Of a stretch of DNA of 64,000 nucleotides, positions 3,686-40,469 are shown one piece after another. Each line of letters begins with the position of its first letter. Position 1 is the first letter of the stretch. Below the pieces are notes generated by a model. That model had not been told where the DNA came from. It saw nothing but the letters and a program-made list of their open reading frames with translations, and searched no databases. The position numbers and the translations under genes were made by a program. Where the stretch lies: the UHGV virus genome UHGV-0042229; one strand, 5' to 3'. This DNA comes from a virus.

Positions 3686-3903
3686 AGTCCCTCCTGAGCA
3701 GAAGCGTTAACAGGGAGGCACCAGTAACTGAGAGAATTGCGTGAATCAGTGGAAAAACGGGCAGAGAAAATACATGGGGCGTCAGGAAGCTGAGAGCGGG
3801 CCTCATCTTCTGTCGGTGCAATAACGAAGTGATAGTGACGTTTTTGGCAGGAGTAAAAGCGCCAGATAAATTCAGGATGAGTTGGGGTAGGGATAGTAGC
3901 CAT
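3682..3903 (-). CDS. Icd-like protein (73 aa), second copy
   Basis: From ATG at 3903 with AGGAGG RBS: MATIPTPTHPEFIWRFYSCQKRHYHFVIAPTEDEARSQLPDAPCIFSARFSTDSRNSLSYW..., highly similar to the 73-aa icd at 51914-52135. The track ORF 3682-4131 is an in-frame upstream extension. Confidence 0.6.
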   Translation of the reverse strand: MATIPTPTHPEFIWRFYSCQKRHYHFVIAPTEDEARSQLPDAPCIFSARFSTDSRNSLSYWCLPVNASAQEGL

Positions 3904-3959
3904 ATTGGCAGCCTCCTTAGACGTTGGTATGTAACCACCGCAGAAGAGACCAATCTTGC

Positions 3960-4050
3960 TGGCGGTGGACTGTACGGAGTTGGCCTTACTGGCGTCCAAG
4001 GTAACCAGCCTACCCGAAGGTAGCCCCATACAGCCCACCATTGTAGAGGT
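3960..4050 (-). ncRNA. Putative c4-like antisense RNA of the second immunity module (approximate bounds)
   Basis: Segment aaccagcctacccgaaggtagccccatacagcccaccattgta parallels the presumed c4 region aaccagcaggccgaagcctccccatcacgccccaccataattt upstream of icd at 52226-52270; flanking loop sequence differs. Confidence 0.3.
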
Positions 4051-4063
4051 GTGCGTGTACGCC

Positions 4064-4097
4064 GATACAAAAAAAAGACGCGAGCGGCGTCTGTATC
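4064..4097 (-). terminator. Rho-independent terminator downstream of pacB
   Basis: On the minus strand: stem gacgccgctcgcgtc followed by T8 (A-run 4069-4076 on plus), with outer gataca/tgtatc pairing. Confidence 0.6.
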
Positions 4098-4222
4098 GCC
4101 TTAGACTTAAGCGGGAGGCCAATCCCGGCACCCGTTTTAATGAGGTGCCTGATAAGCATAAACCGAAAATGCCTCAAGGCGCAAGAGGTCAGGTTCAATG
4201 TAACATCGGCAGTCAAAAAACA

Positions 4223-4242: not shown

Positions 4243-5727
4243 TTACTCATTAAGCCATGCCAGAGCTTCATCAACCTGCGCTTCGTCTTCGACGCTAAGC
4301 ACTTCATCCTGGGGAACATAATCCGCCAGCATAGCGAAACAATATGTATCCCAATGGTCTGGTGAGTGCAGGTTGAGTTTTTTCTTCATATCCTCCTTAC
4401 TCATCACCTTCCATTGACCTGCGGAGTTAATCCCTACAGGGATTTTCGACGCTTCCTCAATAGTTTCATTACCCTTATCCAGTCTCATACGACCAGATTT
4501 TACGGCCTCTGCGGCTTGAACGTTGGCATAAGCACGTTTATCAAAGTACAGGCTCTTATCTTCACGGCTATGCATCTTTTTACCCCAGCGTATACGCTGT
4601 ACGGTAATACCATAATACTCGTACATCAGATCCGCCGTTGCTTTACCCAGGCCATCGCCGTCTATCGCTATGGTGATATTTGGGAATCGCTCAGGATTAC
4701 ATTCTGCGAAAATTTTGGCGGCAAGCTGCGTTTCTGTAACGTCTGTGTATTCCAGCATTCGATAGTTGATTACACGGCGTTTATTTCGCTGGCCGGACAC
4801 CATCATGATATTGATAACGGACTTATCCCGTCCCGTACCACCAGCAACGTCCACACATGCAAGCCAGCCCCATCCTTTTGCAATCTTGACTTTCCGCCGC
4901 GTTGCACGTTCAACCTCATCACGTCCAAGAAGGAAGCCATCCTGTGATTTAGGGAATAGGCCGCGTACCTTAATCATGTACATAGGGTTATCGCGCCCGC
5001 CGTACTCCGCCAGCTTCATTTTGATAAATGCTGGCGTTACCAGCGGTGATTCCTCACTGTTAAGCGTGATCGCCGTATAAACGCCATCAGGGTTACCAGG
5101 ACGCTTGGCCAGTTTATGGTGTGTATCGTAGAAATAGCCGCTTGGGCGTGTAGGCTGTGACAGCAATAAGATGCGGTTATCCTGTCCGGTAAGAGCACCG
5201 GTGATGATACCGAAAGCTCTATCACTGACACCGGAGGCTTCATCGATAATATACAGAAGATGATCTGCGTGTTCACCGGCGAGAGCTTCTTCACTTCCCA
5301 GACGAAAGCCCTTCGGTACTACAGTCCATACACCTTTACCAGTAACCTCATAGAAAGCGGTTTCTGTCAGAACAAAATAATCAGCAAGCCATGGAAAACG
5401 GCTGGTGGCAGTAGCCCAGTTTATCTTGATGTACTTGAATATACCGGTCATTACCTGCTGAATTTTGTTCGCAACGATAATGGCTCGGGCACCGGGATAC
5501 ATGATTATGAACAACATGATCATGATAGAAGTCATGTCTGATTTCCCGGTACCGTGGCCAGACGAAACAGATGTCTTGCTACCCTGTTCCTGCACAGACT
5601 CAATAATCAGATCCTGCTGCCAGGTAGGTGTTTTGCCGAACAAAACATCAGCGGCCGCAATCCAGTCATAACGATATAGCGCCACCAGCTCGCGCCAACG
5701 TGGATCCGTTACGCAACTTCTGGCCAT
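4243..5727 (-). CDS. pacB: Terminase large subunit PacB (494 aa)
   Basis: 494-aa ORF immediately downstream of and overlapping pacA; size and position as P1 pacB. Confidence 0.9.
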
Positions 5728-6920
5728 TAATCATCATCCCCGTATAGCTTGCGGGTAACTTCTTCGTCTTCCTCCTCGTCTTCGTCCAGGTCTTGTTCCA
5801 GCCATGGTTCGTTTGATACACCTTCAGTATCAACATCTCCATAACCGCCTGTATCAACGATATCGGCGATTTCTTCCCTACGCTGCTCAATCCACAATGC
5901 GGCATCGGCGCGGCGGTTGGCGGCCCGTTCTCGCGCAACTTTGTCCAGATCTTCAAGAGAAGGGCCACCGACGGCTGTTTGCCTTTCCTCATCATCGGTA
6001 TTGGTCTTCGGAGCACGCAGATCGGCTTTGATTTGCTCCAGCATCAGGGGCGGCACTTTCCCGCCATGCGCCTCGATGAATTCAGCTGCTTCCAGCACTG
6101 ACCAGTTATTTTCACGCTTTCGTTCGTATGCCAGCTTAACAATGCCAGCTTGCCCCATAGACAAAGCGTGCTTTTCCGCCTCCCGGCTTTCTTTTCGATA
6201 GTTATTCCGGATGCTGTAAATGGTGTTGATCAGGCTGCTTATCTGCGCGGAACAGCTGTTTAGCATGCTCGCGATACGATATTCAGGCGGAGTCCCTTCA
6301 TCATCGTCTTTTTGCTGATCGCGCATTTCCTGCACCAGACGAATACACGTATCCCTGGCATTCTCCAGCATAAGGAGATGAGAAAGAGACTTTTCCAGAA
6401 GAGTGGTTTCCAGAACATCGGCCCCGGACCGACGCAACATAGCGCGCGCGGCCTTCCGCGCTTCAACGTTATCTATCAGGTAATCGCCAGCTTCGAATTC
6501 AAAGCGTTCACCATCATCATCCAGGGTGTCGCGTTCCAGGCGATCACGTAAGGTCCGGTGGGCGCGGGTGATCACGTCATGATCATCAGAACGATCATTT
6601 ATGCGCTTATTTTGGCGCTTCGCATTCTCGACTGCGGCACTGACAACGGCATTAACCCTTTGTTTTTCCGCTATTTCAGCCGCAATGTGATCACCTGCAT
6701 GTTGATCATTAGAGTGATCAATGATCATGCTTTTTAGTGGCTTCCTGACTGGCTTATTTGGCTTGCGGCTGTCCGCTGTCCTGGTGTCTTCTTTGAAGGC
6801 ACGGAGATAACGACGTGCAGTATTAGGGTTAAGATTAAACTCGGCGGCATACTGTGCGATGGTGTAACCACCATCTCGCGCCAGGCGAGCAAAATTCTTC
6901 TTGTGATCGTCCCAGGTCAC
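5727..6920 (-). CDS. pacA: Terminase small subunit / pac-recognition protein PacA (397 aa, GTG start)
   Basis: 397-aa ORF with acidic C-terminus; contains the pac hexamer clusters near its 5' end; AAGGAAG RBS upstream of GTG. Confidence 0.9.
6569..6727. other. pac: pac packaging site (Dam-methylatable TGATCA/G hexamer clusters) inside pacA
   Basis: Four TGATCA at 6688-6693, 6703-6708, 6715-6720, 6722-6727; opposite cluster TGATCA 6569-6574, TGATCA 6580-6585, CGATCA 6592-6597. Matches the 4+3 hexamer architecture of P1 pac. Confidence 0.7.
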
Positions 6921-9579: not shown

Positions 9580-11141
9580 ATGAAAATGACAAGTATTCAA
9601 CAACGTGCAGAGCTTCATCGTCAAATCTGGCAAATTGCTAACGATGTCAGGGGTTCGGTCGATGGATGGGATTTTAAGCAATACGTTCTGGGCGCACTTT
9701 TCTACCGTTTTATCAGCGAAAATTTTTCCAGCCATATGGAAGCCGGTGATGACAGTATCTGTTATGCGAAACTGGATGACAGCGTAATTACTGATGACAT
9801 TAAAGACGATGCCATCAAAACTAAAGGCTACTTCATCTACCCCAGTCAGCTTTTCTGCAACGTAGCTGCGAAAGCAAATACCAATGACAGACTGAATGCG
9901 GATTTAAACAGCATCTTCGTTGCTATCGAAAGTTCTGCTTACGGTTACCCTTCAGAAGCTGACATCAAAGGTTTGTTTGCTGATTTCGATACCACCAGTA
10001 ACCGCCTGGGTAACACCGTTAAGGATAAAAATGCCCGCCTGGCCGCGGTTCTGAAAGGGGTTGAAGGGTTAAAGCTTGGCGACTTTAACGAACATCAGAT
10101 TGACCTGTTCGGCGATGCCTATGAGTTCCTGATTTCTAACTATGCGGCAAATGCCGGTAAGTCAGGCGGTGAGTTCTTTACACCGCAGCACGTCTCCAAG
10201 CTGATTGCACAACTGGCTATGCACGGGCAGACCAGCGTTAACAAAATCTACGACCCGGCAGCGGGTTCCGGCTCACTGTTGTTGCAGGCGAAAAAACAGT
10301 TTGATAACCATATCATCGAAGAAGGTTTTTCGGTCAGGAAATCAACCATACGACCTATAACCTGGCGCGTATGAACATGTTTTTGCACAACATCAACTAC
10401 GACAAGTTTGATATCAAGCTGGGCAATACGCTGACTGAACCGCACTTCAGAGATGAAAAACCGTTTGATGCCATCGTTTCTAACCCGCCGTATTCGGTGA
10501 AATGGATTGGCAGCGATGACCCGACGCTGATTAACGATGAGCGTTTTGCCCCGGCTGGCGTTCTGGCCCCCAAATCCAAAGCTGACTTTGCGTTTGTATT
10601 ACATGCGCTGAACTATCTTTCGGCCAAAGGTCGTGCTGCGATTGTCTGCTTCCCGGGTATTTTTTACCGTGGCGGCGCAGAGCAGAAAATCCGTCAGTAT
10701 CTGGTCGATAATAACTATGTCGAAACCGTAATTTCACTGGCTCCGAACCTGTTCTTTGGCACCACCATTGCCGTAAACATTCTGGTTCTGTCCAAACATA
10801 AAACGGATACCAACGTTCAGTTTATTGATGCCAGCGAACTGTTCAAAAAAGAGACCAACAACAATATCCTGACCGATGCCCATATCGAACAGATTATGCA
10901 GGTATTTGCCAGCAAGGAAGATGTTGCTCATCTGGCGAAATCTGTTGCGTTTGAGACTGTTGTCGCGAATGACTATAACCTGTCGGTAAGCAGCTATGTG
11001 GAAGCCAAAGATACCCGCGAAGTTGTAGATATCACTGAACTGAATGCCGAACTGAAAACCACCGTCAGCAAAATCGACCAATTGCGCAAAGATATTGATG
11101 CGATTGTGGCTGAAATTGAAGGCTGCGAGGTGCAGAAATGA
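9580..11141 (+). pseudogene. hsdM: Type I R-M methyltransferase subunit HsdM (EcoR124-like), split by a -1 frameshift
   Basis: Track ORFs 9580-10374 (motif [11 protein letters not shown]) and 10371-11141 (motif IV NPPYS) are one HsdM. Frame breaks at GGTTTTTCGG (T5, 10326-10330): window reads [18 protein letters not shown], one extra T gives [25 protein letters not shown] joining the fragments. Confidence 0.8.
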
Positions 11142-12412
11142 GCGAGTTGAGTTATCTGGAAAAATTGCTGGATGGGGTTGAGGTTGAGTGGAAATCTTTG
11201 GGTGAAATTGCCACTAAAATTTACTCAGGGGGAACCCCGGATACAAAAAGAAAAGAGTATTGGGAGAATGGAACTATTCCCTGGATGAGTTCTGGCGAAG
11301 TGAACTTAAAAAATATTGAAAGGACAGAGAAATATATTACTGAGGCTGGATTAAATAACTCTAGTGCCAAATTAGTACCGAGAAACTCTGTAGTCATAGC
11401 CTTGGCTGGTCAGGGAAAAACTCGAGGTAAAGTAGCAAGAATCCGTATCGCATTAGCTACTAATCAATCACTTGCAGCACTTACATTTGATGAAAAGAAA
11501 TTCAGTTCCGATTACGTATTCCATTTTTTAGAGACTCAGTATGAGAGTTTGCGTCAAATATCATCTGGAAACAGCGGACGCGGCGGACTAAATCTGCAAA
11601 TGATTTCAGCATACAAAATCCCAATTCCCTGCCCGGATAATCCGGAAAAATCCCTTGCCATCCAGTCTGAAATCGTTCGGATTCTGGACAAATTCAGCGA
11701 GCTTACAGCAGAGCTTACAGCAGAGCTTAACATGCGTAAAAAACAGTACAACTACTATCGCGACCAGTTGTTGCGTTTTAAAGAGGGTGAGGTTGAGTGG
11801 AAGACTTTGGGGGAAATTGGAGATTTTACATATGGATATGCAGCCAAAGCCATGGATTCAGGAGATGCCCGTTTCGTGAGAATTACTGACATAAATAAAG
11901 ACGGGAAGCTATCGAAAGAAAACCCAATGTACGTTGAATTAAATGAGGAAAATGAGAAATATACCTTAGACAAAAATGATTTACTCATGGCAAGAACTGG
12001 GGCAACCTTTGGTAAAACAATGATTTTTGAAGAAGATTATCCAGCAGTATACGCTGGTTTTTTAATAAAGTTGAACCTAAATAAAACGATTATTAATGCC
12101 AAATATTACTGGCACTTTGCACAAAGTGATTTTTTTTGGGAACAGGCTAATAAATTAGTATCTGGTGGTGGGCAACCACAGTTTAATGCTAATGCACTGA
12201 AACAAGTCAGAGTACCTATTCCATACCCATCTCACCCTCAAAAATCTTTAGACGAACAGGGGCGTATTGTGGATATTCTGGATAAGTTTGATGCAATCGC
12301 AGCTTCCATCACCGAAGGTCTCCCGCGTGAAATCGAGTTGCGCCAGAAACAATACGAGTACTATCGTGATTTACTGTTCAGTTTCCCGAAACCTGAAACT
12401 GTCAGTAATTAA
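11138..12412 (+). CDS. hsdS: Type I R-M specificity subunit HsdS (424 aa), EcoR124 family
   Basis: ATGA overlap with hsdM; two target-recognition domains separated by a central region with tandem TAEL repeats. Confidence 0.88.
11705..11728 (+). repeat. Tandem 12-bp repeat (ACAGCAGAGCTT x2) encoding TAEL-TAEL in HsdS
   Basis: acagcagagctt at 11705-11716 and 11717-11728. In EcoR124I/II the TAEL copy number (2 vs 3) sets the spacer length of the recognition sequence. Confidence 0.8.
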
Positions 12413-12533
12413 TTGACCATTGCTACCGACCGGACCACCTTAACATCCGGTCTGTATATAGACTATTTTTTACGTGCCGGAAGTCACCCTTAACTCCCTT
12501 CCGGCCCTTGCCAGACGGCACAAAGGATGCGCT

Positions 12534-15500
12534 ATGACTCATCAGACACACACTATTGCTGAATCCAATAACTTTATCGTCCTTGATAAGTACATCAAAG
12601 CTGAGCCAACAGGCGACAGCTACCAGAGCGAATCGGACCTGGAACGTGAACTGATTCAGGACCTGCGGAATCAGGGCTATGAATTTATATCCGTAAAATC
12701 TCAGTCGGCTATGCTGTCCAATGTTCGGGAACAGCTTCAGAGCCTCAATGGTGTGGTGTTTAATGACAGCGAGTGGCGGCGTTTCACGGAGCAGTATCTG
12801 GACAACCCGAGCGATGGCATTCTGGATAAAACCCGTAAAATCCATATCGACTATATCTGCGACTTTATTTTTGACGACGGGCGACTTGAGAACATCTATT
12901 TGATAGATAAAAAGAATCTCATGCGCAATAAGGTGCAGATTATCCAGCAGTTTGAACAGACGGGTTCTCATGCTAACCGTTATGACGTCACGATCCTGGT
13001 TAATGGCTTACCACTGGTACAAATCGAACTGAAAAAGCGCGGCGTGGCGATTCGTGAGGCTTTCAACCAGATACATCGTTACAGTAAAGAGAGTTTTAAC
13101 AGCGAAAATTCCCTGTTTAAGTATCTGCAACTGTTTGTCATTTCTAACGGCACCGATACCCGTTACTTTGCCAACACCACAAAGCGCGATAAAAACAGTT
13201 TTGATTTCACCATGAACTGGGCGAAATCAGACAACACGCTGATTAAAGACCTCAAAGACTTTACCGCTACCTTTTTCCAGAAACATACTCTGCTGAATGT
13301 TCTGGTGAACTACAGCGTGTTTGACAGTAGTCAGACGTTACTGGTGATGCGACCGTACCAGATTGCCGCCACCGAGCGCATTCTGTGGAAAATTAAGAGC
13401 TCCTTTACAGCGAAGAACTGGTCAAAACCGGAAAGCGGTGGGTATATCTGGCACACTACCGGTTCTGGTAAAACCCTTACCAGCTTTAAAGCCGCGCGTC
13501 TGGCAACAGAGCTGGACTTTATTGATAAAGTCTTCTTTGTGGTCGACAGAAAAGACCTCGATTACCAGACCATGAAGGAATATCAGCGTTTTTCGCCAGA
13601 CAGCGTCAACGGCTCGGAAAATACCGCAGGCCTTAAACGAAATCTGGATAAGGACGATAACAAAATTATCGTCACTACTATTCAGAAACTCAATAACCTG
13701 ATGAAAGCAGAAAGCGACCTGCCTGTATATAATCAGCAAGTGGTGTTCATATTTGATGAATGCCACCGCAGCCAGTTTGGAGAAGCGCAGAAAAACCTGA
13801 AGAAGAAATTCAAACGCTATTATCAGTTTGGTTTTACCGGCACCCCTATTTTCCCGGAAAACGCCTTAGGCTCAGAAACAACCGCCAGCGTATTTGGTCG
13901 TGAATTGCATTCGTATGTAATTACCGATGCGATTCGTGACGAAAAAGTGCTCAAATTCAAGGTGGACTACAACGATGTGCGGCCACAGTTTAAGTCTTTA
14001 GAGACAGAAACTGACGAGAAAAAACTAAGTGCGGCTGAAAATCAGCAGGCGTTTCTTCATCCCATGCGTATTCAGGAAATCACGCAATATATTCTGAATA
14101 ATTTCCGCCAGAAAACTCACCGTACCTTCCCTGGCTCAAAAGGTTTTAATGCTATGTTGGCAGTGAGCAGCGTGGATGCCGCGAAAGCCTATTATGCGAC
14201 GTTTAAACGGTTACAAGAAGAAGCCGCTAATAAATCGGCTACCTATAAACCGCTGCGTATTGCGACAATCTTCTCCTTTGCCGCCAATGAAGAACAAAAT
14301 GCCATTGGTGAAATTTCCGATGAAACTTTTGATACCAGCGCAATGGACAGCAGTGCTAAAGAGTTTCTGGACGCTGCAATTCGTGAATATAACAGCCATT
14401 TTAAAACTAACTTTAGCACCGACAGTAACGGTTTTCAGAACTACTATCGTGATTTAGCCCAGCGGGTTAAAAATCAGGATATCGATCTGCTAATTGTCGT
14501 GGGGATGTTTTTAACCGGCTTCGATGCTCCAACATTGAACACGCTATTCGTCGATAAAAACTTGCGTTTTCACGGCCTGATGCAGGCATTTTCCCGCACC
14601 AACCGTATTTATGATGCAACTAAAACCTTCGGTAATATCGTCACTTTCCGGGATCTGGAACGCTCAACTATTGATGCCATAACGCTGTTTGGTGACAAAA
14701 ACACCAAAAATGTGGTGTTAGAAAAGAGTTATACAGAGTATATGGAAGGCTTTACTGATGCTACTACTGGTGAAGCTAAACGCGGCTTCATGACAGTAGT
14801 TTCAGAACTGGAACAACGGTTCCCTGACCCTACCAGTATTGAAAGTGAAAAAGAGAAGAAAGACTTCGTTAAACTGTTTGGCGAATACCTGCGTGCCGAG
14901 AACATCCTGCAAAACTATGATGAATTTGCCACGCTAAAAGCCCTGCAACAAATCGATCTTAGCGATCCTGTTGCGGTAGAAAAATTCAAAGCAGAACATT
15001 ATGTGGATGATGAAAAGTTCGCTGAATTGCAAACAATTCGTCTCCCTGCTGATCGCAAGATTCAGGATTATCGTTCTGCCTATAACGATATTCGCGACTG
15101 GCAGCGCCGTGAGAAAGAAGCTGAGAAAAAAGAGAAATCAACCACTGACTGGGATGACGTAGTTTTTGAGGTCGATTTGCTGAAGTCTCAGGAAATAAAC
15201 CTGGATTATATCCTTGGACTGATTTTCGAACACAACAGACAAAATAAAGGCAAGGGCGAAATGATCGAAGAGGTCAAACGCTTAATTCGTTCAAGCCTAG
15301 GGAACCGTGCTAAAGAGGGCCTGGTGGTCGATTTTATTCAGCAAACGAACCTGGATGATTTACCGGACAAAGCCAGCATCATTGACGCATTCTTTACGTT
15401 TGCTCAACGCGAACAGCAACGTGAAGCAGAAGCATTGATAAAAGAAGAAAATCTCAATGAAGATGCAGCAAAACGCTATATTCGCACGTCTTTAAAACGC

Positions 15501-15650
15501 GAATATGCCACCGAAAATGGCACAGAATTAAACGAAACATTACCAAAACTTAGTCCGTTGAATCCGCAATATAAAACGAAAAAACAGGCAGTTTTCCAGA
15601 AAATCGTCTCGTTTATTGAGAAGTTTAAAGGGGTAGGCGGAAAAATATAG
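12534..15650 (+). CDS. hsdR: Type I restriction enzyme R subunit HsdR (1038 aa), EcoR124-like
   Basis: From ATG at 12534 with AAGGA RBS: [33 protein letters not shown]...; helicase motifs (TTGSGKT, DECHRSQ). Track ORF starts 20 codons upstream at GTG. Confidence 0.9.
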
Positions 15651-31542: not shown

Positions 31543-34500
31543 ATACCCAAAACGTCATGAGCTACACCTCGAGTGTCCCCCTTACAAGACACAGAACGTC
31601 TGGCAAAAAGAGGTTCCACTCTGAAGCCACTGTCATGATAAAGCTCTCTGATGTTTGGCGCGCCACTGTTAGTAATGAGAACCTTTGCACCTCGACGATG
31701 AGCATCCGTCAACAGAGACACCAGGCGTTTTTGCTCTTCAAACTTAAAGTCATGACCGGAATAGTTCGTGAATCCCTCTGTATTTGGAAGCGGTTCATAC
31801 GGCGGATCGCAAAAGATGACATCTCCTTCTCCGGCAGCTTCAATCACCGCTGCAAAATCACCGCATACAAACTCAGACCGCCCTTCCGCACCGAGGAAGG
31901 CTTCCATCTCCTGTAATGGGAAATACGGAGTTTTATACTTCCCATAACCGACATTGAACTCACCGGCCTGGTTGTAGCGCGTCAATCCGTTAAAACAATG
32001 TCGGTTCAGGAACAAAAACGCCGCTGCGCGATGTAAATCATCATAGACTTGTTTGTTAAACGCATTCCGTACTGCCAAGTATCCCTCCTGGGTGTTGTAG
32101 TCCAGGAAAAAACGATGTGCCAGAGTGATAAGTGAATGCTCCTCGCGTTGCAGAGTCTTGTAAAAGTTAATCAGGTCAGCATTCACATCATTTAGCAGAT
32201 TTTCCTGGTATCCGGCATTCATGAAGACAGCTCCGCCACCGACGAAAGGTTCAATCAGGCGCTTCCCTTCTGGCAAATAGCGAAAGATTTGTTCCAGAAC
32301 ACCAAATTTTCCACCGGCCCATTTGAATATGGACCGTTCGAATTCTGCCGCTGGTTTAACTTTTCGCTCTTTTGTTTCACTTCCTTCTTTCTGCCGACAT
32401 ACGGCCTTAGTAATCCGATCGCCAATCCAGCGCATTACTGGTATTGCCATACTATTGCCGATCGCTTTGTAACGCGGTCCGTCAGCTGCAAGCATTGCGG
32501 CCTCTTCTTCGCTTAAATCTGGATAGTGATTGTGCAGATATGCCAGTTCATCTGAATTAACTTTTTTACGCTTTTCCGTAGGGATCAACGTATGCCAATC
32601 AGGAAAACCTTGCAGCCTTTCACATTCGACAGGGGTAAGACGGCGCATTCTACCGTCGCCGAGCAATACAATTGGTGCTTCATGGTTACATGTCAAAGTT
32701 GGTGCCGAATTATCGGTTTTTATCTCAGCCCCTCCTTGCCCATGTGCCATGGCAATTATGTTTGTATCATCGCAAGTTCTGATAGCGATGTTTGAAGTAT
32801 ATCTGGTAGTTTCCTTCCCCTCGCCTCTGCTCGGCGCAATATTCCGGCGCACGCCTTCGAACTCAAAAAGTACCGTTGCGGGATCGAGGTCTGTTCGAGC
32901 ACTTGCGACAACAAACACGCGTCGGCGTCGTTGTGCCACTCCGAAGTATTGGGCATCAAGGATTCTCCAGGCCACTTTTCGCTGCGGTCCATAAATACAA
33001 CCACACTGCGGCCACTTTGGAGCATGGCAACCGGTTTTGACATCCCACCGCCAGAATGCGTTACTTTTTCCTGATTCAGGTCGATCACCTGGTTCGAATG
33101 GCGCATCTTCTCCAGCCAATCCGGCAAGGAAACATCCGAAGGCGTTATCTGCCGATGACAAGACTCCTGGGACATTTTCCCAGACGATAACGGCTGGTTT
33201 GAGAAATGACTCAGCCCGTTTGTCGTCAATTGCATTTGCAAGCTCCACATACTTTAAAGTTAGCGCGCCACGCTCATCATCAAGCCCACCACGTAATCCA
33301 GCGATACTGAATGCCTGACAGTTATGGACCACCGCACCATTGAGGATATAGGAATGATCACCTTCGACTTCTATGTTGTATACAGTATCTAGGCCTACCG
33401 ATTTAAACTCTTTGACTGTTCGTAAAAGCATTCCATGAGCCAATCTTGATTTACGTGACAATTTCTGCGGGCAGATTGTTACCTGATAATAATTCCGTTG
33501 ATTTACCACGCGATCCTCAATCACTTTTTTGGGCTTAACTTCAATAAAGCTGACCGAAGAAACATAACCACAAGTCTGTGACAACTCCGCAACGCCCCAA
33601 GCAAGCGCAGGACTAACACTATTAATTCTAAATCCCGCTTTACCACTTGGTGTCCCATCAGTATCAAGATAGCCTTGTAAAAACACATGACGCAATGGAT
33701 GCGACATAACCCATGCAGGGATACGCTTAGCATGGCTTAACTCGCCAAAATGTTCATTAAGCCAATTGGCATAACACGTATCATTCAAGGTTACTTTGAT
33801 GCTCCCTCGGATTTCGCTTGCCACGGAAAATATGTTTTCTGGTATGCGGCAATGAAACTTTCTCAATTTCTGGCAATTTATGCCAAAAACAACCGCCTTC
33901 TTAGATTTACCTCTCCATCTCCTAATATATCCATCGCCAACATAAGCGCCCGCAAGATACATAGCCTGTTCTTCAGACAAGAACCGAGAACAAATATCTG
34001 GAGATGCAATATTGAAATTAGTTAGAGCACACCATTGATATCCCGGCATATCACATGCTGCTCGCCATTCCGGTTCAGACAACAACTCTCTCTTAAAATA
34101 TGTGCCATTTTTCCGGGTGTTTTGGGCTTTCCACCGAACCGCCAGGAAGGGATGGTCATTGGTTGTTCTTATACCTAAAGGCTGCCCAACGGCATTAAGT
34201 AACCCCGTATTAGCTATTTTTGAACCAACTCTTTTTACTTGTTGTAACCGCCCGAGATGACTGACTACGTAATCGCCAGGGCAAACATCTTCTATTGGTT
34301 TATAACCATTTTTACAAAGAACCATATGCCCCGCGGTAAAACATGGTGTCCCTCCCACCAGCACATCAGGGGCTTCAATTTCTCCAGCCTGGACTTTTTG
34401 GGCGAGTTTTGTCATGTCGCCAAGGTTGGCGACATGGGGCCAGTGGTACGCAAGAACGGCAGATGGAAAAGGCTCGATTTCAGCAAACCACGCCGGACGC

Positions 34501-34574
34501 ATACCCAACGGTTCCCAGGCAATACTCGCGGCTTCAATTCCACTGCAAACAGATCCATAGCACAGCTCTTTCAC
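31533..34574 (-). CDS. dmt: Bifunctional DNA methyltransferase Dmt (C5-cytosine MTase N-domain + Dam-like N6-adenine MTase C-domain), interrupted by an in-frame intein; 1013 codons
   Basis: N-domain C5-MTase motifs (VLVGGTP|CQAFSIAG split, [16 protein letters not shown]); C-domain Dam-like ([26 protein letters not shown]). GTG start overlaps upstream gene stop. Confidence 0.85.
33321..34343 (-). mobile_element. Intein (341 codons) with LAGLIDADG homing-endonuclease domain, inserted in the PCQ motif of the Dmt C5-MTase domain
   Basis: Begins [13 protein letters not shown]... (block A Cys1), contains IRTTNDH (block B TxxH), LAGLIDADG-like [13 protein letters not shown] and [13 protein letters not shown], ends ...[11 protein letters not shown] followed by +1 Cys of CQAFSIAG. 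Residues 78-418 of the ORF; in frame, no stops. Confidence 0.8.
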
Positions 34575-35476: not shown

Positions 35477-35825
35477 GTTGTAACCCTTGAATATCAACCA
35501 CAGAAAGCTCGTCTTTGTAGAAAAAGGCCAGGTTGTGGCACCCCCTCGTTTGAGCGTATGAGCTGGGACCAATTTCGTTCTTCCAGACAAATGGCTTCAA
35601 ATCCGTACGGCGAAGCATAAAAACGCGATTTGTTCCGCTCTGATTCCCAATGAGGCAAAAGCCTTCTTTCACCTTGATAGCCTGCAAGTTGTCGAGTTCA
35701 CCGCTGGTTACACGGCTATCGAACTCCTTGCGGCTTATTAGCTCCATCTGCATCTGACGACTCCAAACAAATGCCCATTGAAGGGCGATGGCTGAATGGT
35801 ACCGAAAATACGACATAAAAAACAA
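35469..35825 (-). CDS. Hypothetical protein (up to 118 aa) between operator and rdgC-like gene
   Basis: ORF track; start uncertain (several in-frame Met). Confidence 0.4.
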
Positions 35826-35841
35826 TATTTATTAGAGCAAT
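35825..35841 (-). promoter_or_regulatory. C1 operator-like site upstream of the rdgC-dmt operon
   Basis: atatttattagagcaat, 16/17 to reverse-complement consensus. Confidence 0.6.
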
Positions 35842-35922
35842 TTTGCAATAGTTGAACTCCATGTAGACCACAAACAACCTGAGTTAAAATAACGAAAATC
35901 AGAGCAAATAATTGGTGATAAC

Positions 35923-36207
35923 GTGGCAAGTATTGCAACAAAAGACAGCATTTGTTCGGGGCACGGAGGATTCCCATCCAGGCCTCCTGTAGAGAGTGAA
36001 GCACTACTTAAAGTCAACGGAGTCGAAGTGTTAGTTGATGGTAAGCAATATGCACAGCATACCGATGGAAACAGTACGCACGGTGGGCAAGCTATATCAA
36101 CCAGGGCATGGTTTACCGTCAATGGTAAAGGGATCGTATGCGTTGGTGACCCTGTTTCATGCGGATCTACCGTAGCGTCCGGAGACGGCCTGGTTCAGGT
36201 AAGTTAG
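35923..36207 (+). CDS. PAAR-like protein (94 aa, GTG start)
   Basis: Repeated xHGG / GD motifs (CSGHGGF..., THGGQAIS..., VCVGDPVSCGS...) typical of PAAR spike-tip proteins. Confidence 0.45.
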   Translation: MASIATKDSICSGHGGFPSRPPVESEALLKVNGVEVLVDGKQYAQHTDGNSTHGGQAISTRAWFTVNGKGIVCVGDPVSCGSTVASGDGLVQVS

Positions 36208-36215
36208 GAGATATC

Positions 36216-37004
36216 ATGCTGGAAAAAGACTACCAGTTATCCGCATATAAAAAATTGGCCGCCGCCGGTGGGATGAAAACACCTGGTGCCATAACATCGG
36301 CACGAAACAGTGCTAACACAGCAAAACTGCTTGCAGAAGAATTGACCGGATTAATTCTGGATACAATTGTCTATCCCGACACTATTACCAGCTATGTTTC
36401 AACGATCAGAACAACCACAACCGGCTTAACGAACATTGGAGAACTGGCAACTAAGCACGCGGACCTGTTGGCTGGTTATGCAGATCTGTCAATGCTGCTT
36501 CAACTCGATATTGGTTGGGATGTTTACTGCCGTGCTAATGAGCGAGAAGTATCAGAACTGCCGATCTCTATTGCCATTGGTGACGCGACTACAACGAAAT
36601 CGCTTGAGGACGCTGTAAATGCGCTTAATGCGTCGAGTTTAGTCGCTGCTATGGGTGACGTTAACCAGACCCTTAACACAGGCTCAGGAAGCTCGTCAGG
36701 CTCTGATTCAGGTGGCGGCGCAGTCACTCCCCCACCAGCACTGACAGAACAACAAGTTGAAGCACTGAAGGAAGCTACTGAACAATTTGGTGCTTTTTTC
36801 GACCAGACAACAGTACCGGTAGCAGCATTGCAACAGCAGTATGAACGAGCGAAGGAAAGCGCCAGCGTAGCCATAACTGCTTATAACCATGCTATCGGAA
36901 CCGCGCTGGCGGAAGCATCAGCAAATAAGGCCAGCACCGCCAGCGCAGTCGCAGCTTTGGTTCCTGATTCTGTTCTTGATGAATTAAACAAGGCGACACT
37001 TTAA
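36216..37004 (+). CDS. Hypothetical protein (262 aa from ATG with AGGAG RBS)
   Basis: Track ORF 36159-37004 trimmed to MLEKDYQL...; Ser/Gly-rich linker, Ala-rich C-terminus. Confidence 0.5.
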   Translation: MLEKDYQLSAYKKLAAAGGMKTPGAITSARNSANTAKLLAEELTGLILDTIVYPDTITSYVSTIRTTTTGLTNIGELATKHADLLAGYADLSMLLQLDIGWDVYCRANEREVSELPISIAIGDATTTKSLEDAVNALNASSLVAAMGDVNQTLNTGSGSSSGSDSGGGAVTPPPALTEQQVEALKEATEQFGAFFDQTTVPVAALQQQYERAKESASVAITAYNHAIGTALAEASANKASTASAVAALVPDSVLDELNKATL

Positions 37005-37043
37005 CAAAGGACTTCACAGATAATTTTTCTTCAGGAGGAAGAA

Positions 37044-37466
37044 ATGTCGTTTTTTTCAACGTTAAAAACAGCTTTGTCTTTGAAGGAGAAACTTGCTGTT
37101 ACTGGTGTTCTTGTCCTGATTTGCGCACTTGTTGGTGCTGGGTTTGCATGGGAACGTTATCAGTTAAAGCAAGCCTTGGAAAAAATTGGCAGCCTTGATC
37201 AGGCTGTTAAGGAGCGCGATAAGTCAATCATTGATCTTAACCAGACCATTGAGACGATGAATAAAGCGGATCAACATTTTCACAGCCAGGAAGTGAAAAA
37301 TGAATCAGAACAAGCGAAGTATGCAGACAGACAAATGGAACGAAAAGCTGAAGTTCAGAAACAACTGGTTGCGTCGGGTAGTGTTCGCCAGCGCATTCCT
37401 GTTGACACTCAGCGGTTGCTCCGGGAGTCGATCAGCGAATTTAACGCCGACGCCGACAAAGGTTAA
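37044..37466 (+). CDS. i-spanin-like protein (140 aa): N-terminal TM helix plus coiled-coil
   Basis: TM LAVTGVLVLICALVGAGFAW followed by charged coiled-coil region; 3' end overlapped out of frame by a lipoprotein ORF. Confidence 0.45.
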   Translation: MSFFSTLKTALSLKEKLAVTGVLVLICALVGAGFAWERYQLKQALEKIGSLDQAVKERDKSIIDLNQTIETMNKADQHFHSQEVKNESEQAKYADRQMERKAEVQKQLVASGSVRQRIPVDTQRLLRESISEFNADADKG

Positions 37467-37632
37467 TCACCCTGCCCCCAAAAGTGCATTTATGTGCAGG
37501 ATGCCAGAGTTTAGCAGTGAATATTTTGATGATCTGCCAGCCTATATCCTTGATACAGAAACGATGCTGATGGGGATTAACAGGAAGAATCGCAACGTTA
37601 ATGATTACAACCGCGCTATCAGCGGTAACTAA
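37300..37632 (+). CDS. o-spanin-like lipoprotein, overlapping the i-spanin-like gene (start uncertain)
   Basis: Signal peptide with lipobox LLTLSGC, mature part Pro/Thr-rich; overlaps 37044-37466 in the +1 frame. Confidence 0.4.
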   Translation: MNQNKRSMQTDKWNEKLKFRNNWLRRVVFASAFLLTLSGCSGSRSANLTPTPTKVNHPAPKSAFMCRMPEFSSEYFDDLPAYILDTETMLMGINRKNRNVNDYNRAISGN

Positions 37633-37643
37633 AAGGGATTTTT

Positions 37644-38036
37644 ATGTCTGATAAAGTAACAGTAAAGCAAACTATCAACAAAGCGACTTCAATCTACAAA
37701 ATTGAGCAAATCACTGTTGGCAAGCCAGGATCTGAACAATACCGTCGTGCTTTCGAGCTTGCCGATCAGCTTGGTTTAAAACACCCGGATTGCATTGAGC
37801 ATGTATTTCCGACCTATGCTGATGAGCAATGTACTCATGTTCTTACCGAAGAGGATTTTTTCTGCACTGAAGAACGAGAAGGAGTTGATCGCTGCATTGG
37901 TGTGATTTGCTCTTCAGTGAGTTATGAGTTATTCCCTAATGTCCATGAAGATGGTGGTGTTGGATACCAATTCCTGTACGAAGGCGATGAGCTTAAATGT
38001 TATGAACATGGTCTTCTTATCGAAAGCGTAGAATAA
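37644..38036 (+). CDS. Hypothetical protein (130 aa)
   Basis: ORF track; followed by hairpin aaccggc/gccggtt at 38050-38070. Confidence 0.5.
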   Translation: MSDKVTVKQTINKATSIYKIEQITVGKPGSEQYRRAFELADQLGLKHPDCIEHVFPTYADEQCTHVLTEEDFFCTEEREGVDRCIGVICSSVSYELFPNVHEDGGVGYQFLYEGDELKCYEHGLLIESVE

Positions 38037-38078
38037 TACCCTTCCTTCCAACCGGCTATGTTGGCCGGTTTATTCAAC

Positions 38079-38186
38079 TTATCCACAGCATAGATCCAAT
38101 AAACAGATCCTAAAGAGAACCTAGGAAGATCCAAAGAAGATCCCGGATCGCTGTAAGCCGCGTCATTACTGGCCTGAAATGGGATC
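38079..38186. other. oriR: Plasmid origin oriR core: DnaA box plus GATC cluster
   Basis: Perfect DnaA box TTATCCACA at 38079-38087; six GATC at 38093, 38106, 38128, 38139, 38146, 38183 (four as AGATCC); directly upstream of iterons and repA. Confidence 0.65.
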
Positions 38187-38190
38187 AACA

Positions 38191-38294
38191 TTGACTATAC
38201 GCGATTTTATGTTGACTGTGCACGATTTATTGTTGACTGCACGCGATTTATTGTTGACTATACGCGACAGAAACATTGACTGTAAGCGATTTTA
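38191..38294 (+). repeat. Five direct iterons (origin-proximal array, incC-like)
   Basis: Starts 38191, 38212, 38233, 38254, 38276 (21-22 bp period): TTGACTATACGCGA, TTGACTGTGCACGA, TTGACTGCACGCGA, TTGACTATACGCGA, TTGACTGTAAGCGA. Confidence 0.8.
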
Positions 38295-38370
38295 GAGTCT
38301 GAATATTCACAGCTGTTGATAACAGCCATCCAAATTGACGTCAGGCCGCGCCACACATGGAGAAACCGTG

Positions 38371-39255
38371 ATGCCGGAAGAAAGTAAAGGCTTCCTTAGC
38401 GTTGAAGAAGTTGCAGGAAATACAGGAGAAATCCACAGCCTGAAGCCCAATAACAACAGCACTATACAACCCATCGCTTTGTTGCGCTTAGGTGTGTTTG
38501 TGCCAACCTTAAAATCTACCAATGTGGCGCTACGTCGCGGATCGTCAGTTACAACAAACACAACGAACGCAACTGAAGAACTATCAAGCCTCAAAATTGT
38601 TGAGCAGGAAGGCTATGAGGGAATTGAAATTCATGGTCCACGCCTGGATATGGATACTGATTTTAAGGTGTGGGTGGGCATAACCTCCGCGTTGTTTGAC
38701 TACGCACCTGATGATGACGGCATAATCACCCTGCCATTCTCCGAGTTTGCCGATCGATGCGGCTATCCACGTAAGCGCCTTTCAAAGGCGTTCCGTAAAA
38801 GTATTGATGACTCTCTGACACGCATTCAGCAGACAGTTGTCAAATTCCGCTTCCCGGCGGCAAAAGGTCATCTCAATAACATTAACGTCAACTTGTTGGC
38901 ATATAGCAGCCTGAATACCGAGCTTGATGTTATCGAGATCCAGCCGCAGAAACAGCTATCTGAACTTTACTATGTTGACTATAAGCGAATCCTGAAGCTG
39001 AAGATGCTGGATAAACTAGGGCGCAAAGAGACGGCCAAGGTACTGTATACATTCTTTGAGGCTCTACCCGCCAACCCGGCACCTGTCAGCATTGAGCGCC
39101 TTAGAGCGAGGCTTAATCTCAAATCATCCGTTAGCGTGCAAAATAGCGTTATCAGAAAAGCCATGAAAGATTTGGAAGCTATTGAATATCTTAAATTTTC
39201 AGAGATAAAAAACGGCAGGAAAATCGGCTTCCAGATCCATAAGCGCAATCCATAA
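38371..39255 (+). CDS. repA: Replication initiator RepA (iteron-binding)
   Basis: From ATG at 38371 with GGAG RBS; shares blocks with my recollection of P1 RepA (TIQPIALLRLGVFVP, GPRLDMDTDFKVWVG, VLYTFFEALPANPAPVSIERLRARL) but overall diverged; flanked by iteron arrays. Confidence 0.85.
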   Translation: MPEESKGFLSVEEVAGNTGEIHSLKPNNNSTIQPIALLRLGVFVPTLKSTNVALRRGSSVTTNTTNATEELSSLKIVEQEGYEGIEIHGPRLDMDTDFKVWVGITSALFDYAPDDDGIITLPFSEFADRCGYPRKRLSKAFRKSIDDSLTRIQQTVVKFRFPAAKGHLNNINVNLLAYSSLNTELDVIEIQPQKQLSELYYVDYKRILKLKMLDKLGRKETAKVLYTFFEALPANPAPVSIERLRARLNLKSSVSVQNSVIRKAMKDLEAIEYLKFSEIKNGRKIGFQIHKRNP

Positions 39256-39257
39256 TA

Positions 39258-39512
39258 TTGACTATATGCGATAGCGAGAAGTTGACTATAGGCGACATTC
39301 GTTGACGCTGGTGGATTTTTGCTGGCGTCAATATTCTGCAAGTCGCTATTGAGATGGCTTTTAGGGGCATTTCATCGCGTATAGTCAACGTTTCTCCCGA
39401 CAATATCTTACATAGTCGATCTTTGGTGGAGTTAAATCGACTACAGTCAACTTTTGACTGTAGTCACATCGCGCATAGTCAACTATTCACATTAACCTTC
39501 GCGCATAGTCAA
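39258..39512. repeat. Iteron array downstream of repA (incA-like), both orientations
   Basis: About nine copies of TTGACTAT(A/G)(T/G)GCGA / TCGCG(C/T)ATAGTCAA, e.g. 39258, 39282, 39376 (rev), 39437 (rev), 39454, 39471 (rev), 39501 (rev). Confidence 0.75.
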
Positions 39513-39547
39513 CATTTGCGCGGTTCTCATCAAGCAGTGGTATTGAT

Positions 39548-40357
39548 ATGCAAGAAGAGAAACAACACTACCTCTACGTTCTGGTGCCAGAGAACGGAGA
39601 TACTTTTAAAATCGGCATTTCATGTGGTCCATTGGCACGGTTTAAAGGGCTACAAGTGAGTCCCGATTTTGCGCTTTCACGGGTCTATCGTGGTACGCGT
39701 TTGGTAATGGTTAATCTTGAGCGGGCTTTACACGCAACCTTTTTCCCCTGGAATGCGCCGTGGGAGAAAAGCGTCGGTGGCGGGCATACTGAATGGTTTA
39801 CACGAGAGTGTCTTGATAAGGTTTTGGCTCATATCGAATATCTAAATGATATGTGGGGAGGGATTCTCGAGCGCATTAAGTCGAATGATTTACTTCAGCG
39901 TCCAGTAGATGCTGCTTGCTCTTTCGAAAAAGAGCTGGATGTTACTTCTATCGTGACTTTCAAAGATGACGCAGGAATGAGGGACGTGGCTTATGTCTCC
40001 ATATCTGGCTATGAACCGGACGCGATCCGCGCTCAATGTGAATTGCTGAAAGCAATGTTTATGCTTCGGACTAAATATCCCTGGGATACAGGGCGGGTGT
40101 GCTTCCCTATGGAAGAGTTAACCGCCACCATTGATTCCCAGCTTTACCACGATAATCCAGAGAAGTTTTTTAGCCTTTTAGCCGGTAATGGGCTTAACTG
40201 TGTGTCCGGGCTGGGGCGAAGTAGAATCCAACATGCCTCGCTCTTCGGTCCCTTCTTTTACGATCGACACGGGTACTTTGAGGCTGAACTTCCGGCGCTT
40301 ACGCGTGCTATAGATACTATCGATTTCGAACGATTATTCGCTGCTCTTAGCAAATAA
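39548..40357 (+). CDS. T5orf172 (GIY-YIG-like) domain protein (269 aa)
   Basis: N-terminal HYLYVLVPENGDTFKIGIS...RFKGLQV...GGGHTEWF pattern of the T5orf172 domain; about 170 aa C-terminal region of unknown function; own terminator. Confidence 0.6.
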   Translation: MQEEKQHYLYVLVPENGDTFKIGISCGPLARFKGLQVSPDFALSRVYRGTRLVMVNLERALHATFFPWNAPWEKSVGGGHTEWFTRECLDKVLAHIEYLNDMWGGILERIKSNDLLQRPVDAACSFEKELDVTSIVTFKDDAGMRDVAYVSISGYEPDAIRAQCELLKAMFMLRTKYPWDTGRVCFPMEELTATIDSQLYHDNPEKFFSLLAGNGLNCVSGLGRSRIQHASLFGPFFYDRHGYFEAELPALTRAIDTIDFERLFAALSK

Positions 40358-40364
40358 CACTGAT

Positions 40365-40385
40365 GCCCCTGAACGGGGCTTTTTT
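40365..40385 (+). terminator. Rho-independent terminator after the T5orf172 gene
   Basis: gcccc-tgaac-ggggc followed by T6. Confidence 0.75.
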
Positions 40386-40469
40386 GTGCCCTCCTTGTAA
40401 CTCTCAATCGTGCAAAATGAACCAAACATGCAGAGAATGCTATGTACAAGCATCTACGCATACATTATT

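Follow-up and report, generated by a model that had tools for sequence, protein, structure and literature searches.

An overlapped spanin-like gene pair and a PAAR-type spike-tip gene in the upfC-upfA transcription unit of a P1-like phage-plasmid

Introduction

The spanin pairs closest to the one treated here are those of phages P1 and P2. The "overlapped" class of spanin genes was defined in Kongari 2018, with P2 as an example, and the supplement of that study lists P1 gp064/gp063 as an overlapped inner-membrane spanin (i-spanin) and outer-membrane spanin (o-spanin), with the remarks 'one [Cys] in TMD' and 'too long signal sequence', a LipoP cleavage at residue 39, and no PROSITE hit. Bednarek et al. 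2022 describe the P1 spanin genes, ppfA and mlp, as partially overlapping and located in an unlinked operon, and the dispersal of its lysis genes is a documented peculiarity of P1 (PMC9025707). Here we analyze the counterparts of these genes, together with the operon that contains them, in a 64,000-nucleotide stretch of the virus genome UHGV-0042229 (hereafter the window, meaning that whole stretch).

The same P1 operon encodes components of the virion. UpfC was linked by HHpred to gp5.4 of phage T4, and deletion of upfC leaves P1 viable (Gonzales et al. 2022; PMC9024508). In a 2026 cryo-electron microscopy (cryo-EM) study of P1, a UpfC monomer was resolved on the gp5 spike trimer, and a novel 'tripod' at the spike tip, consisting of three trimers, was assigned to UpfB by fitting an AlphaFold3 model to medium-resolution density (PMC12810830). 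The genes mlp, ppfA, and upfC belong to a set of 21 that are extremely conserved in 77 P1-like phage-plasmids. In a genome-wide CRISPR interference (CRISPRi) screen, upfC, upfB, ppfA, mlp, and upfA were all non-essential for plaque formation.

The locus in the window is already known, in that its genes are P1 orthologues and its operon has been catalogued; the additions made here are a candidate late promoter and a possible downstream start for Mlp. Taken as a whole, the region is very probably the upfC-upfB-ppfA-mlp-upfA transcription unit of a P1-like (Punavirus) phage-plasmid, comprising two functional modules, one at the tail tip and one predicted to be a spanin pair.

Results

A five-gene unit shared with P1

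The open reading frame (ORF) listing, along with direct reading of positions 35,500 to 38,200, shows five co-oriented plus-strand genes, flanked by a divergent intergenic region on one side and a plasmid origin of the iteron type on the other:

35923-36207, plus strand: upfC, 94 aa, GTG start, PAAR-type spike tip
36216-37004, plus strand: upfB, 262 aa, strong AGGAG Shine-Dalgarno sequence, the 'tripod' protein
37044-37466, plus strand: ppfA, 140 aa, predicted i-spanin
37300-37632, plus strand: mlp, 110 aa, +1 frame, 167-nt overlap with ppfA, predicted o-spanin precursor
37644-38036, plus strand: upfA, 130 aa, acidic and Cys-rich, last gene of the unit, PHROG 1453 (function unknown)

A preliminary description of this region had proposed a PAAR-like gene followed by an overlapping spanin-like pair. 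The ORFs that it named were found where it had placed them, and the PAAR gene and the overlapping pair were recognized correctly, but the 262-aa upfB between them was overlooked.

Megablast of positions 35,800 to 38,100 returned full-length matches to P1, P7, RCS47, SJ46, and other P1-like phages at 94–96% identity, the P1 alignment being 95.5% to NC_005856 62900–65186 with an identical gene order. The NC_005856 record carries upfC, upfB, ppfA, mlp, and upfA (gp066–gp062) between Odmt/Pdmt and oriR/repA, and identical residues relative to P1 amount to 92/94 for UpfC, 254/262 for UpfB, 132/140 for PpfA, 105/110 for Mlp, and 125/130 for UpfA. The window has the same genes, order, 167-nt overlap, and flanks (Odmt operator and oriR) as P1, P7, RCS47, and SJ46, at 94–96% DNA and 94–98% protein identity. 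Within the unit, substitutions relative to P1 are few, with 8 in PpfA and 5 in the signal region of Mlp among them; beyond the unit, the adjacent oriR/repA replicon differs from that of P1, and dmt contains an intein that P1 dmt lacks.

Related loci were collected by scanning genome contigs, which gave 3 close loci, and viral contigs, which gave approximately 100. The comparison set comprises 94 related loci along with the window (95 sequences, with 31 distinct Mlp proteins). The loci fall into two clades, a P1-like clade, in which PpfA is 87–100% identical, and a diverged clade with approximately 58% PpfA identity, whose database protein names include Salmonella, Klebsiella, and Cronobacter.

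PpfA and Mlp have the predicted anatomy of an i-spanin and an o-spanin

The preliminary description had read the pair as a 140-aa transmembrane (TM) and coiled-coil protein overlapped out of frame by a lipoprotein with the lipobox LSGC, and both halves of that reading agree with the proteins. PpfA has one strongly hydrophobic segment at residues 17–35 (LAVTGVLVLICALVGAGFA; Kyte-Doolittle 2.48 over 19 residues), preceded by a short, basic N-terminal segment of net charge +2, as in a type II protein with a single N-terminal TM helix. The remainder is predicted to be nearly all helical. Its periplasmic domain of 105 residues is 35% charged and contains heptad-compatible windows at starts 1–55, and an AlphaFold2 model built from a 13-sequence alignment places helices at residues 13–110 and 120–138 with a break at 111–119, at moderate confidence (mean predicted local distance difference test score of 71). 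By this model, PpfA would have the helical, coiled-coil-like periplasmic domain expected of an i-spanin.

Mlp is encoded by a 110-aa ORF in the +1 frame and begins with a basic N-region and a hydrophobic core that lead into LSGC, with Cys40 as the lipobox cysteine and Ser rather than Asp at +2, as expected of an o-spanin lipoprotein. The mature form would comprise 71 aa with 6 prolines, 5 of them in the first 30 residues. A second cysteine, Cys66 (mature position 27), is retained in 31/31 distinct sequences and provides the pair with a periplasmic cysteine for covalent homodimerization. One publication (PMC9025707) exchanges the labels, naming ppfA the o-spanin and mlp the i-spanin; the TM helix of PpfA and the lipobox of Mlp indicate the reverse, and the assignment in Kongari 2018 is the right one.

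Two start sites can be considered for Mlp. Codon 24 (37369–37371), which aligns with Met1 of P2 LysC, reads TTG in P1-clade sequences and ATG in those of the diverged clade, so that initiation there may yield a shortened precursor whose signal peptide has a canonical length of 16 residues. The upstream ATG and its Shine-Dalgarno sequence are also conserved, displaced by one codon in the diverged clade.

The mlp frame is a conserved gene

The preliminary description had named loss of the lipoprotein frame in relatives as an observation that would speak against its proposal. The frame is open in 95/95 sequences, both genes are present at every locus, and the ppfA/mlp overlap is 167 nt in 94/95, preserving the +1-frame arrangement. 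The C-terminal two thirds of Mlp are well conserved (AFMCRMPE..SEYFDDLPAYI...INRKNRNVN.YNRAI). In the 54 codons of mlp that lie past the ppfA stop, Nei-Gojobori analysis gives a proportion of non-synonymous differences (pN) of 0.12 vs a proportion of synonymous differences (pS) of 0.84–0.90 against most diverged-clade sequences, with a pS of 0.50 against the diverged-clade locus L085. Relative to P1, the same codons contain 5 synonymous and 0 non-synonymous changes. The non-overlapped part of mlp is under strong purifying selection.

Constraint is distributed differently within the overlap, where the ppfA frame dominates (ratio of non-synonymous to synonymous rates, dN/dS, of 0.14–0.19) and the mlp frame has a dN/dS of approximately 1.5–1.7, the N-region of the Mlp signal peptide being free to vary. 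Nucleotide identity is approximately 0.74–0.76 in the overlap vs 0.59 in the remainder of ppfA, a higher value that is expected from the constraint of dual coding.

These data bear on the possibility that ppfA is the only gene here and that the 110-aa lipoprotein frame is a chance ORF. Gene callers omitted mlp in several relatives, and the dN/dS of the mlp frame in the overlap, where constraint is mostly that of ppfA, is compatible with such a reading. The pN and pS values of the mlp-only codons argue against it, as does retention of the frame, start region, hydrophobic core, Cys40, and Cys66 in 31 distinct sequences, even at 58% PpfA identity; the overlapped C-terminal part of PpfA is more conserved than its N-terminal part, and Mlp has significant similarity to P2 LysC (see below). 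A chance ORF is vanishingly improbable, and is ruled out by the conservation and Nei-Gojobori analyses.

The pair is distantly related to P2 LysB/LysC

PpfA matches PHROG 89 (6.6e-23), to which P2 LysB also belongs (5.8e-61), and Mlp matches PHROG 456 (6e-5), the family of P2 LysC (1.7e-31), as well as PHROG 30284. In a direct BLASTP comparison, Mlp and P2 LysC share 37% identity over 68 residues (E 2e-8), an alignment that spans the signal peptide, the Pro-rich stretch, and the second cysteine. The link to LysB rests on the PHROG profiles because the alignment of PpfA itself is too shallow; a PDB search with the PpfA profile returned only a spurious ribosomal-protein hit (E 0.027). As the NCBIfam equivalog models for LysB and LysC score under their cutoffs (see Discussion), PpfA and Mlp appear to be distant relatives of P2 LysB and LysC and not their equivalogs.

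The two systems resemble each other in size (LysB 141 aa and PpfA 140 aa; LysC 96 aa and Mlp 110 aa), in their PHROG families, and in the o-spanin gene, which in both occupies the +1 frame and runs past the stop of the i-spanin gene. In P2, lysB and lysC directly follow the holin, endolysin, and lysA genes in one cassette, whereas the P1-type pair lies tens of kilobases from the other lysis genes. Mlp also has a 23-residue N-terminal extension relative to LysC.

Likeness to phage lambda Rz/Rz1 is more general: a predicted type II helical inner-membrane protein is paired with an outer-membrane lipoprotein that is rich in proline and has its gene in the +1 frame, and both pairs match the weak cross-family PHROGs 739, 214, and 456. 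Lambda Rz and Rz1 belong to families other than the PHROG 89 and 456 families of P2 LysB and LysC, and there is no significant direct sequence similarity to the pair described here. Lambda Rz has two periplasmic cysteines, whereas PpfA has none, and Rz1 is wholly embedded in Rz, whereas mlp overlaps ppfA and extends beyond it. The preliminary description had called the arrangement the classic i-spanin/o-spanin overlap. A spanin-like overlapping pair is supported by the PHROG 89 and 456 matches and by the similarity to LysC, but the classic lambda form is embedded and the form found here is the P2-like overlapped one.

The pair is remote from the other lysis genes

Apart from a few replaced segments, the window as a whole is colinear with P1 37.2–94.8 kb in reversed orientation. 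The P1 lysis genes map to 20.0–20.9 kb (lyz/lydD/lydE) and 30.4–31.5 kb (lydC/lydA/lydB), both outside the P1 span that the window covers, which agrees with the earlier remark that the pair lies away from any visible lysis cassette. The two largest window segments without P1 homology contain no lysis genes; they encode type I restriction-modification genes, and antirepressor and Ash-like genes.

The first of these segments, 9580–15650 on the plus strand, is a type I restriction-modification cassette (hsdM, hsdS, and an EcoR124-like hsdR) that replaces the P1 DNA lying between humD and pmgT, the flanks of which are noted in the P1 record as homologous to hsd loci. Its hsdM is split into ORFs at 9580–10374 and 10371–11141, pointing to a frameshift or a pseudogene. 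The second, 2570–4131 on the minus strand, lies between the c1 repressor region and pacB and encodes an ANT/ORF6N antirepressor-like protein (371 aa) and an Ash-family protein (149 aa); P1 lacks an equivalent, save for an 87% match of approximately 340 nt to P1 ant1.

A candidate late promoter upstream of ppfA

Late genes of P1 are transcribed from Lpa-dependent promoters, 11 of which are counted in the literature, in which 4 nt separate a -10 hexamer from a palindromic -22 box (AAGTNACTT). When 10 of the late promoters annotated in P1 were used to build a weight matrix, it recovered the window homologues of LP23, LPs, LP26, LPpac, and LPsit at scores of 14.5–22.2. Only 6 of 128,000 window positions reach a score of at least 14, and 5 of these are homologues of known late promoters; no site in the window near upfC or ppfA reaches it. 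Three promoter-like features are relevant to the unit:

37006-37024, plus strand: candidate Lpa-type late promoter for ppfA-mlp, AAAGGACTTCACAGATAAT, read as AAAGGACTT-CACA-GATAAT, with a degenerate left half-site
L093 4964-4982, and L085 and L087 3964-3982: late-promoter-like site of the diverged clade, by weight matrix
35884-35912, plus strand: weak sigma-70-like promoter candidate for upfC, TTAAAA-17-AATAAT, 9/12 matches

The site upstream of ppfA ends 20 nt before the ATG, just ahead of AGGAGG, and scores 8.6 in the window and 8.5 in P1. The equivalent site in the diverged clade scores 17.4 in locus L093 (AAGTGACTTACCGGAGAAT), 18.6 in L085 (AAGTGACTTTCCAGAGAAT), and 15.2 in L087 (ATATGACTTGTCAGAAAAT), with AAGTGACTT-N4-GAGAAT located at an equal distance from ppfA in L093 and L085. 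No other site of the locus scores higher in L085 or L087, and in L093 only one does, an LP23-like site that shortly precedes the last gene. The intergenic sequence around the site differs between the clades. Matrix scores and position together suggest that the spanin pair probably has its own Lpa-dependent late promoter upstream of ppfA, which is clear in diverged-clade loci but weakened in both P1 and the window. The main text of two P1vir transcriptome papers does not mention the genes of this locus.

Sigma-70-like matches such as that ahead of upfC are at least as frequent in shuffled sequence as here. A TAAAAT hexamer at 35885–35890 is positionally conserved in the diverged clade, and its counterpart in locus L094 scores 12.7 as a late-promoter-like site.

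Elsewhere in the window, the plus-strand site AAGTGACTGGTGATAACCT at 23411–23429 scores 17.3, which is in the range covered by genuine late promoters of P1. The gene 7 homologue contains this site, approximately 50 nt into its sequence, and genes 24, 6, and 5 follow downstream; the P1 counterpart of the site (approximately 76779–76797) carries no late-promoter annotation.

UpfC and UpfB as probable tail-tip proteins

The PAAR-like assignment, for which a profile search had been proposed as a check, holds. UpfC is identical at 92/94 positions (98%, E 2e-59) to the 'UpfC' chain of the P1 cryo-EM structure (PDB 9vyi_A), and it matches PHROG 281 'PAAR motif' (3.7e-30), T4 gp5.4 (E 4.6e-8; entries 5iv5 and 4ku0, at about 5e-8), and the PAAR protein 4jiv_D of a type VI secretion system (T6SS; E 6e-5). 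The Pfam PAAR_motif model gives 26.5 bits, just under its 27-bit cutoff. The T6SS PAAR model NF033420 gives 35.3 bits against a cutoff of 124, and the context is a phage-plasmid and not a T6SS locus. Like T4 gp5.4 and T6SS PAAR proteins, UpfC is a small single-domain cone of approximately 95 residues with conserved His/Cys positions, and like gp5.4 it is dispensable for plaque formation; unlike T6SS PAAR proteins, it is not a T6SS component.

The spike that UpfC would cap is encoded in the baseplate gene cluster:

25873-26505, plus strand: gene 5 homologue (spike trimer capped by UpfC), 210 aa, within a 98.4% identical block colinear with P1 (P1 gene 5 is 73704–74336)

This gene lies approximately 9.4 kb from upfC. 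Unlike in T4, upfC is separated by approximately 9 kb from its spike gene, and the tip has an extra lineage-specific partner, UpfB, that is absent from T4. Given the 97–98% identity to P1, one copy of UpfC would cap the gp5 trimer of the contractile tail here too.

UpfB matches PHROG 1559 end to end (262/263 positions), with no Pfam match above cutoff and no PDB hit. In protein searches, its homologues are confined to P1-like elements, down to 50% identity, and are mostly 255–262 aa long. The P1 record gives upfB as a 281-aa ORF, which here would begin at 36159 and overlap the end of upfC. This start appears less likely than the ATG at 36216, because the latter has the AGGAG sequence and fits both the PHROG profile end to end and the lengths of homologues, and because upfB of the diverged clade begins past the upfC stop. 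The linkage of PAAR, tripod, and spanin genes could not be traced beyond the P1 lineage, as tblastn against phages retrieved P1-like phages and Cronobacter phage JK004 only.

Flanking elements and the adjacent replicon

The unit is bounded by the following elements:

35825-35841, minus strand: C1 repressor operator (homologue of P1 Odmt/Op68), ATTGCTCTAATAAATAT on the minus strand, identical to the annotated P1 operator
38048-38074 (hairpin 38048-38064), plus strand: terminator-like hairpin with T-rich tail, consensus match
38189-38289, no strand assigned: oriR, five TGTTGACTATACGCGA-like iterons at 21–22 bp spacing, followed by repA at 38335–39255

Expression of the leftward uhr-hrdC-dmt operon is under the control of the C1 operator, whose position identifies the divergent intergenic region, and the minus strand upstream of upfC encodes an RdgC-family protein and a Dam/Dcm fusion methyltransferase. 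With the five iterons and a Rep3-type repA (Rep3_N and Rep3_C domains) on the other side, the location between an rdgC-dmt operator and oriR given in the preliminary description is borne out. Terminator-like sites show no enrichment over shuffled sequence; by its placement, the hairpin after upfA is likely the end of the transcription unit before oriR.

The last gene, upfA, is accessory. In the diverged-clade locus L093, the gene caller leaves its position empty (5423–5978) and mlp directly precedes the origin and repA, and in phage JL22 a blaCTX-M-55 cassette is inserted in upfA. On these two grounds, upfA is dispensable cargo at a hot spot. The repA/upfA region is a known variable region of P1-like phage-plasmids, and the interval 38165–40427, which contains oriR, repA, and incA, has no megablast match to P1. 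As judged by this lack of a match, the plasmid replicon adjoining the locus has diverged from that of P1. In addition to the five iterons before repA, TGTTGACTATACGCGA recurs at 39256–39295, with inverted copies at 39373–39518.

On the other flank, the dmt ORF (31533–34574, minus strand) encodes a 1013-aa Dam/Dcm fusion, compared with 754 aa for the 2265-nt dmt coding sequence of P1. The extra length is a 341-aa intein (33321–34343, minus strand; Hint_2 and LAGLIDADG_3) with the junctions GGTP|CFTAGH...VVHN|CQAFS, inserted immediately before the Cys of the conserved PC motif in the C5-methylase domain. The same intein, 98.5–99.4% identical, is found in 20/94 related loci and is absent from P1.

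Discussion

At infection, one copy of UpfC, a small PAAR-fold cone, would sit on the gp5 spike tip and sharpen it for piercing of the outer membrane, with the three UpfB trimers of the tripod anchored at the same tip. At lysis, PpfA would act as a type II inner-membrane i-spanin with a long helical periplasmic domain, and Mlp, translated in the +1 frame, would be lipidated at Cys40 and sorted to the outer membrane as the o-spanin. The C-terminal parts of the two proteins would bind each other across the periplasm, and once the holin and the signal-arrest-release (SAR) endolysin Lyz had removed the peptidoglycan mesh, the PpfA-Mlp complex would fuse the inner and outer membranes, finishing lysis. 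We infer this spanin activity by analogy with established spanin biology, that of lambda Rz/Rz1.

Several observations weigh against this interpretation. PpfA lacks a periplasmic cysteine, the signal region of Mlp, with 39 residues, is unusually long, and the diverged clade has an atypical Asn at position -2 of the lipobox (LNGC or LNAC). The NCBIfam equivalog models fall short of their cutoffs (TIGR03495 phage_LysB, 18.4 vs 92.75; NF038368 P2_Rz1, 14.3 vs 27), and comparison of the PpfA profile (13 sequences; effective number of sequences, Neff, 1.6) by hhalign was insignificant against both lambda Rz (E 0.025, probability 2%) and P2 LysB (E 0.061). The NC_005856 record lists no canonical late promoter for the unit, and the candidate in the window scores only 8.6. 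The assignment of the P1 spanins was made from predicted features and was experimentally unverified as of 2022 (PMC9025707, citing Summer 2007), and in the literature from 2019 on we found no experimental test of them. CRISPRi knockdown of ppfA or mlp caused no plaque defect, a result that is also expected of spanins under standard plating. For the tail tip, the role of UpfB rests on medium-resolution density fitted with an AlphaFold3 model (PMC12810830).

A different function for PpfA and Mlp can be envisaged, in which both are mainly envelope proteins made by the prophage from sigma-70 promoters near the plasmid maintenance region, and act in superinfection exclusion or lysogenic conversion in the manner of lambda Bor or T5 Llp. 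The only promoters that the P1 record annotates for the pair are two predicted sigma-70 promoters, P1ppfA and P2ppfA, of which the second is identical in the window and the first nearly so. The genes adjoin oriR/repA/par and not other lysis genes, their knockdown is tolerated, and the late-promoter-like site is weak in the P1 clade. Such a function is nonetheless improbable in view of the membership of both proteins in the spanin families of P2 LysB and LysC, the conserved +1 overlapped architecture that is a hallmark of spanins, the strong late-promoter match at the exactly equivalent place in the diverged clade, and the sharing of the unit with the virion proteins UpfC and UpfB, which are products of the lytic cycle.

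The unit might also be a single envelope-crossing module in which PpfA and Mlp work with the UpfC/UpfB tip at infection, in membrane fusion or as a DNA-entry channel, and not in lysis. The colinear PAAR-tripod-spanin order is conserved in both clades, and P1 gp5 is devoid of the lysozyme domain of T4 gp5, which led the authors of the cryo-EM study to speculate on a distinct membrane-piercing apparatus (PMC12810830). Yet neither PpfA nor Mlp appears in the main text of the P1 virion paper, including its proteome table from liquid chromatography–tandem mass spectrometry (PMC9024508), or among the baseplate components resolved by cryo-EM (PMC12810830). A lipoprotein moreover needs the Lgt/Lsp/Lol machinery of the cell that produces it and would end in the outer membrane of the dying host and not in the particle, and homology points to lysis proteins. 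We consider a role at entry highly unlikely. A broader formulation, that the late promoter decayed in the P1 clade and that lysis is not the function of the pair, or is only one of its functions, the pair having taken on a prophage-expressed envelope or exclusion function or become coupled to the UpfC/UpfB entry apparatus, has a slim chance of being correct. Its weaker version is more likely, namely that P1-type spanins would have their own unannotated Lpa-dependent late promoter, strong in the Salmonella/Klebsiella/Cronobacter clade and weakened in P1.

With PpfA and Mlp read as lysis spanins, the locus has little discovery value in itself: its genes are P1 orthologues, the structure of the PAAR tip has been solved, and the spanin pair has been catalogued since at least 2018. 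A late promoter at ppfA would offer a simple explanation for the timing of the predicted spanin pair, whose genes stand apart from the operons of the holin and endolysin. If the proposal is true, the spanin pair shares its kind of promoter with the lyz and lydA-lydB operons (LPlyz and LPdar), and one would be added to the 11 accepted late promoters of P1.

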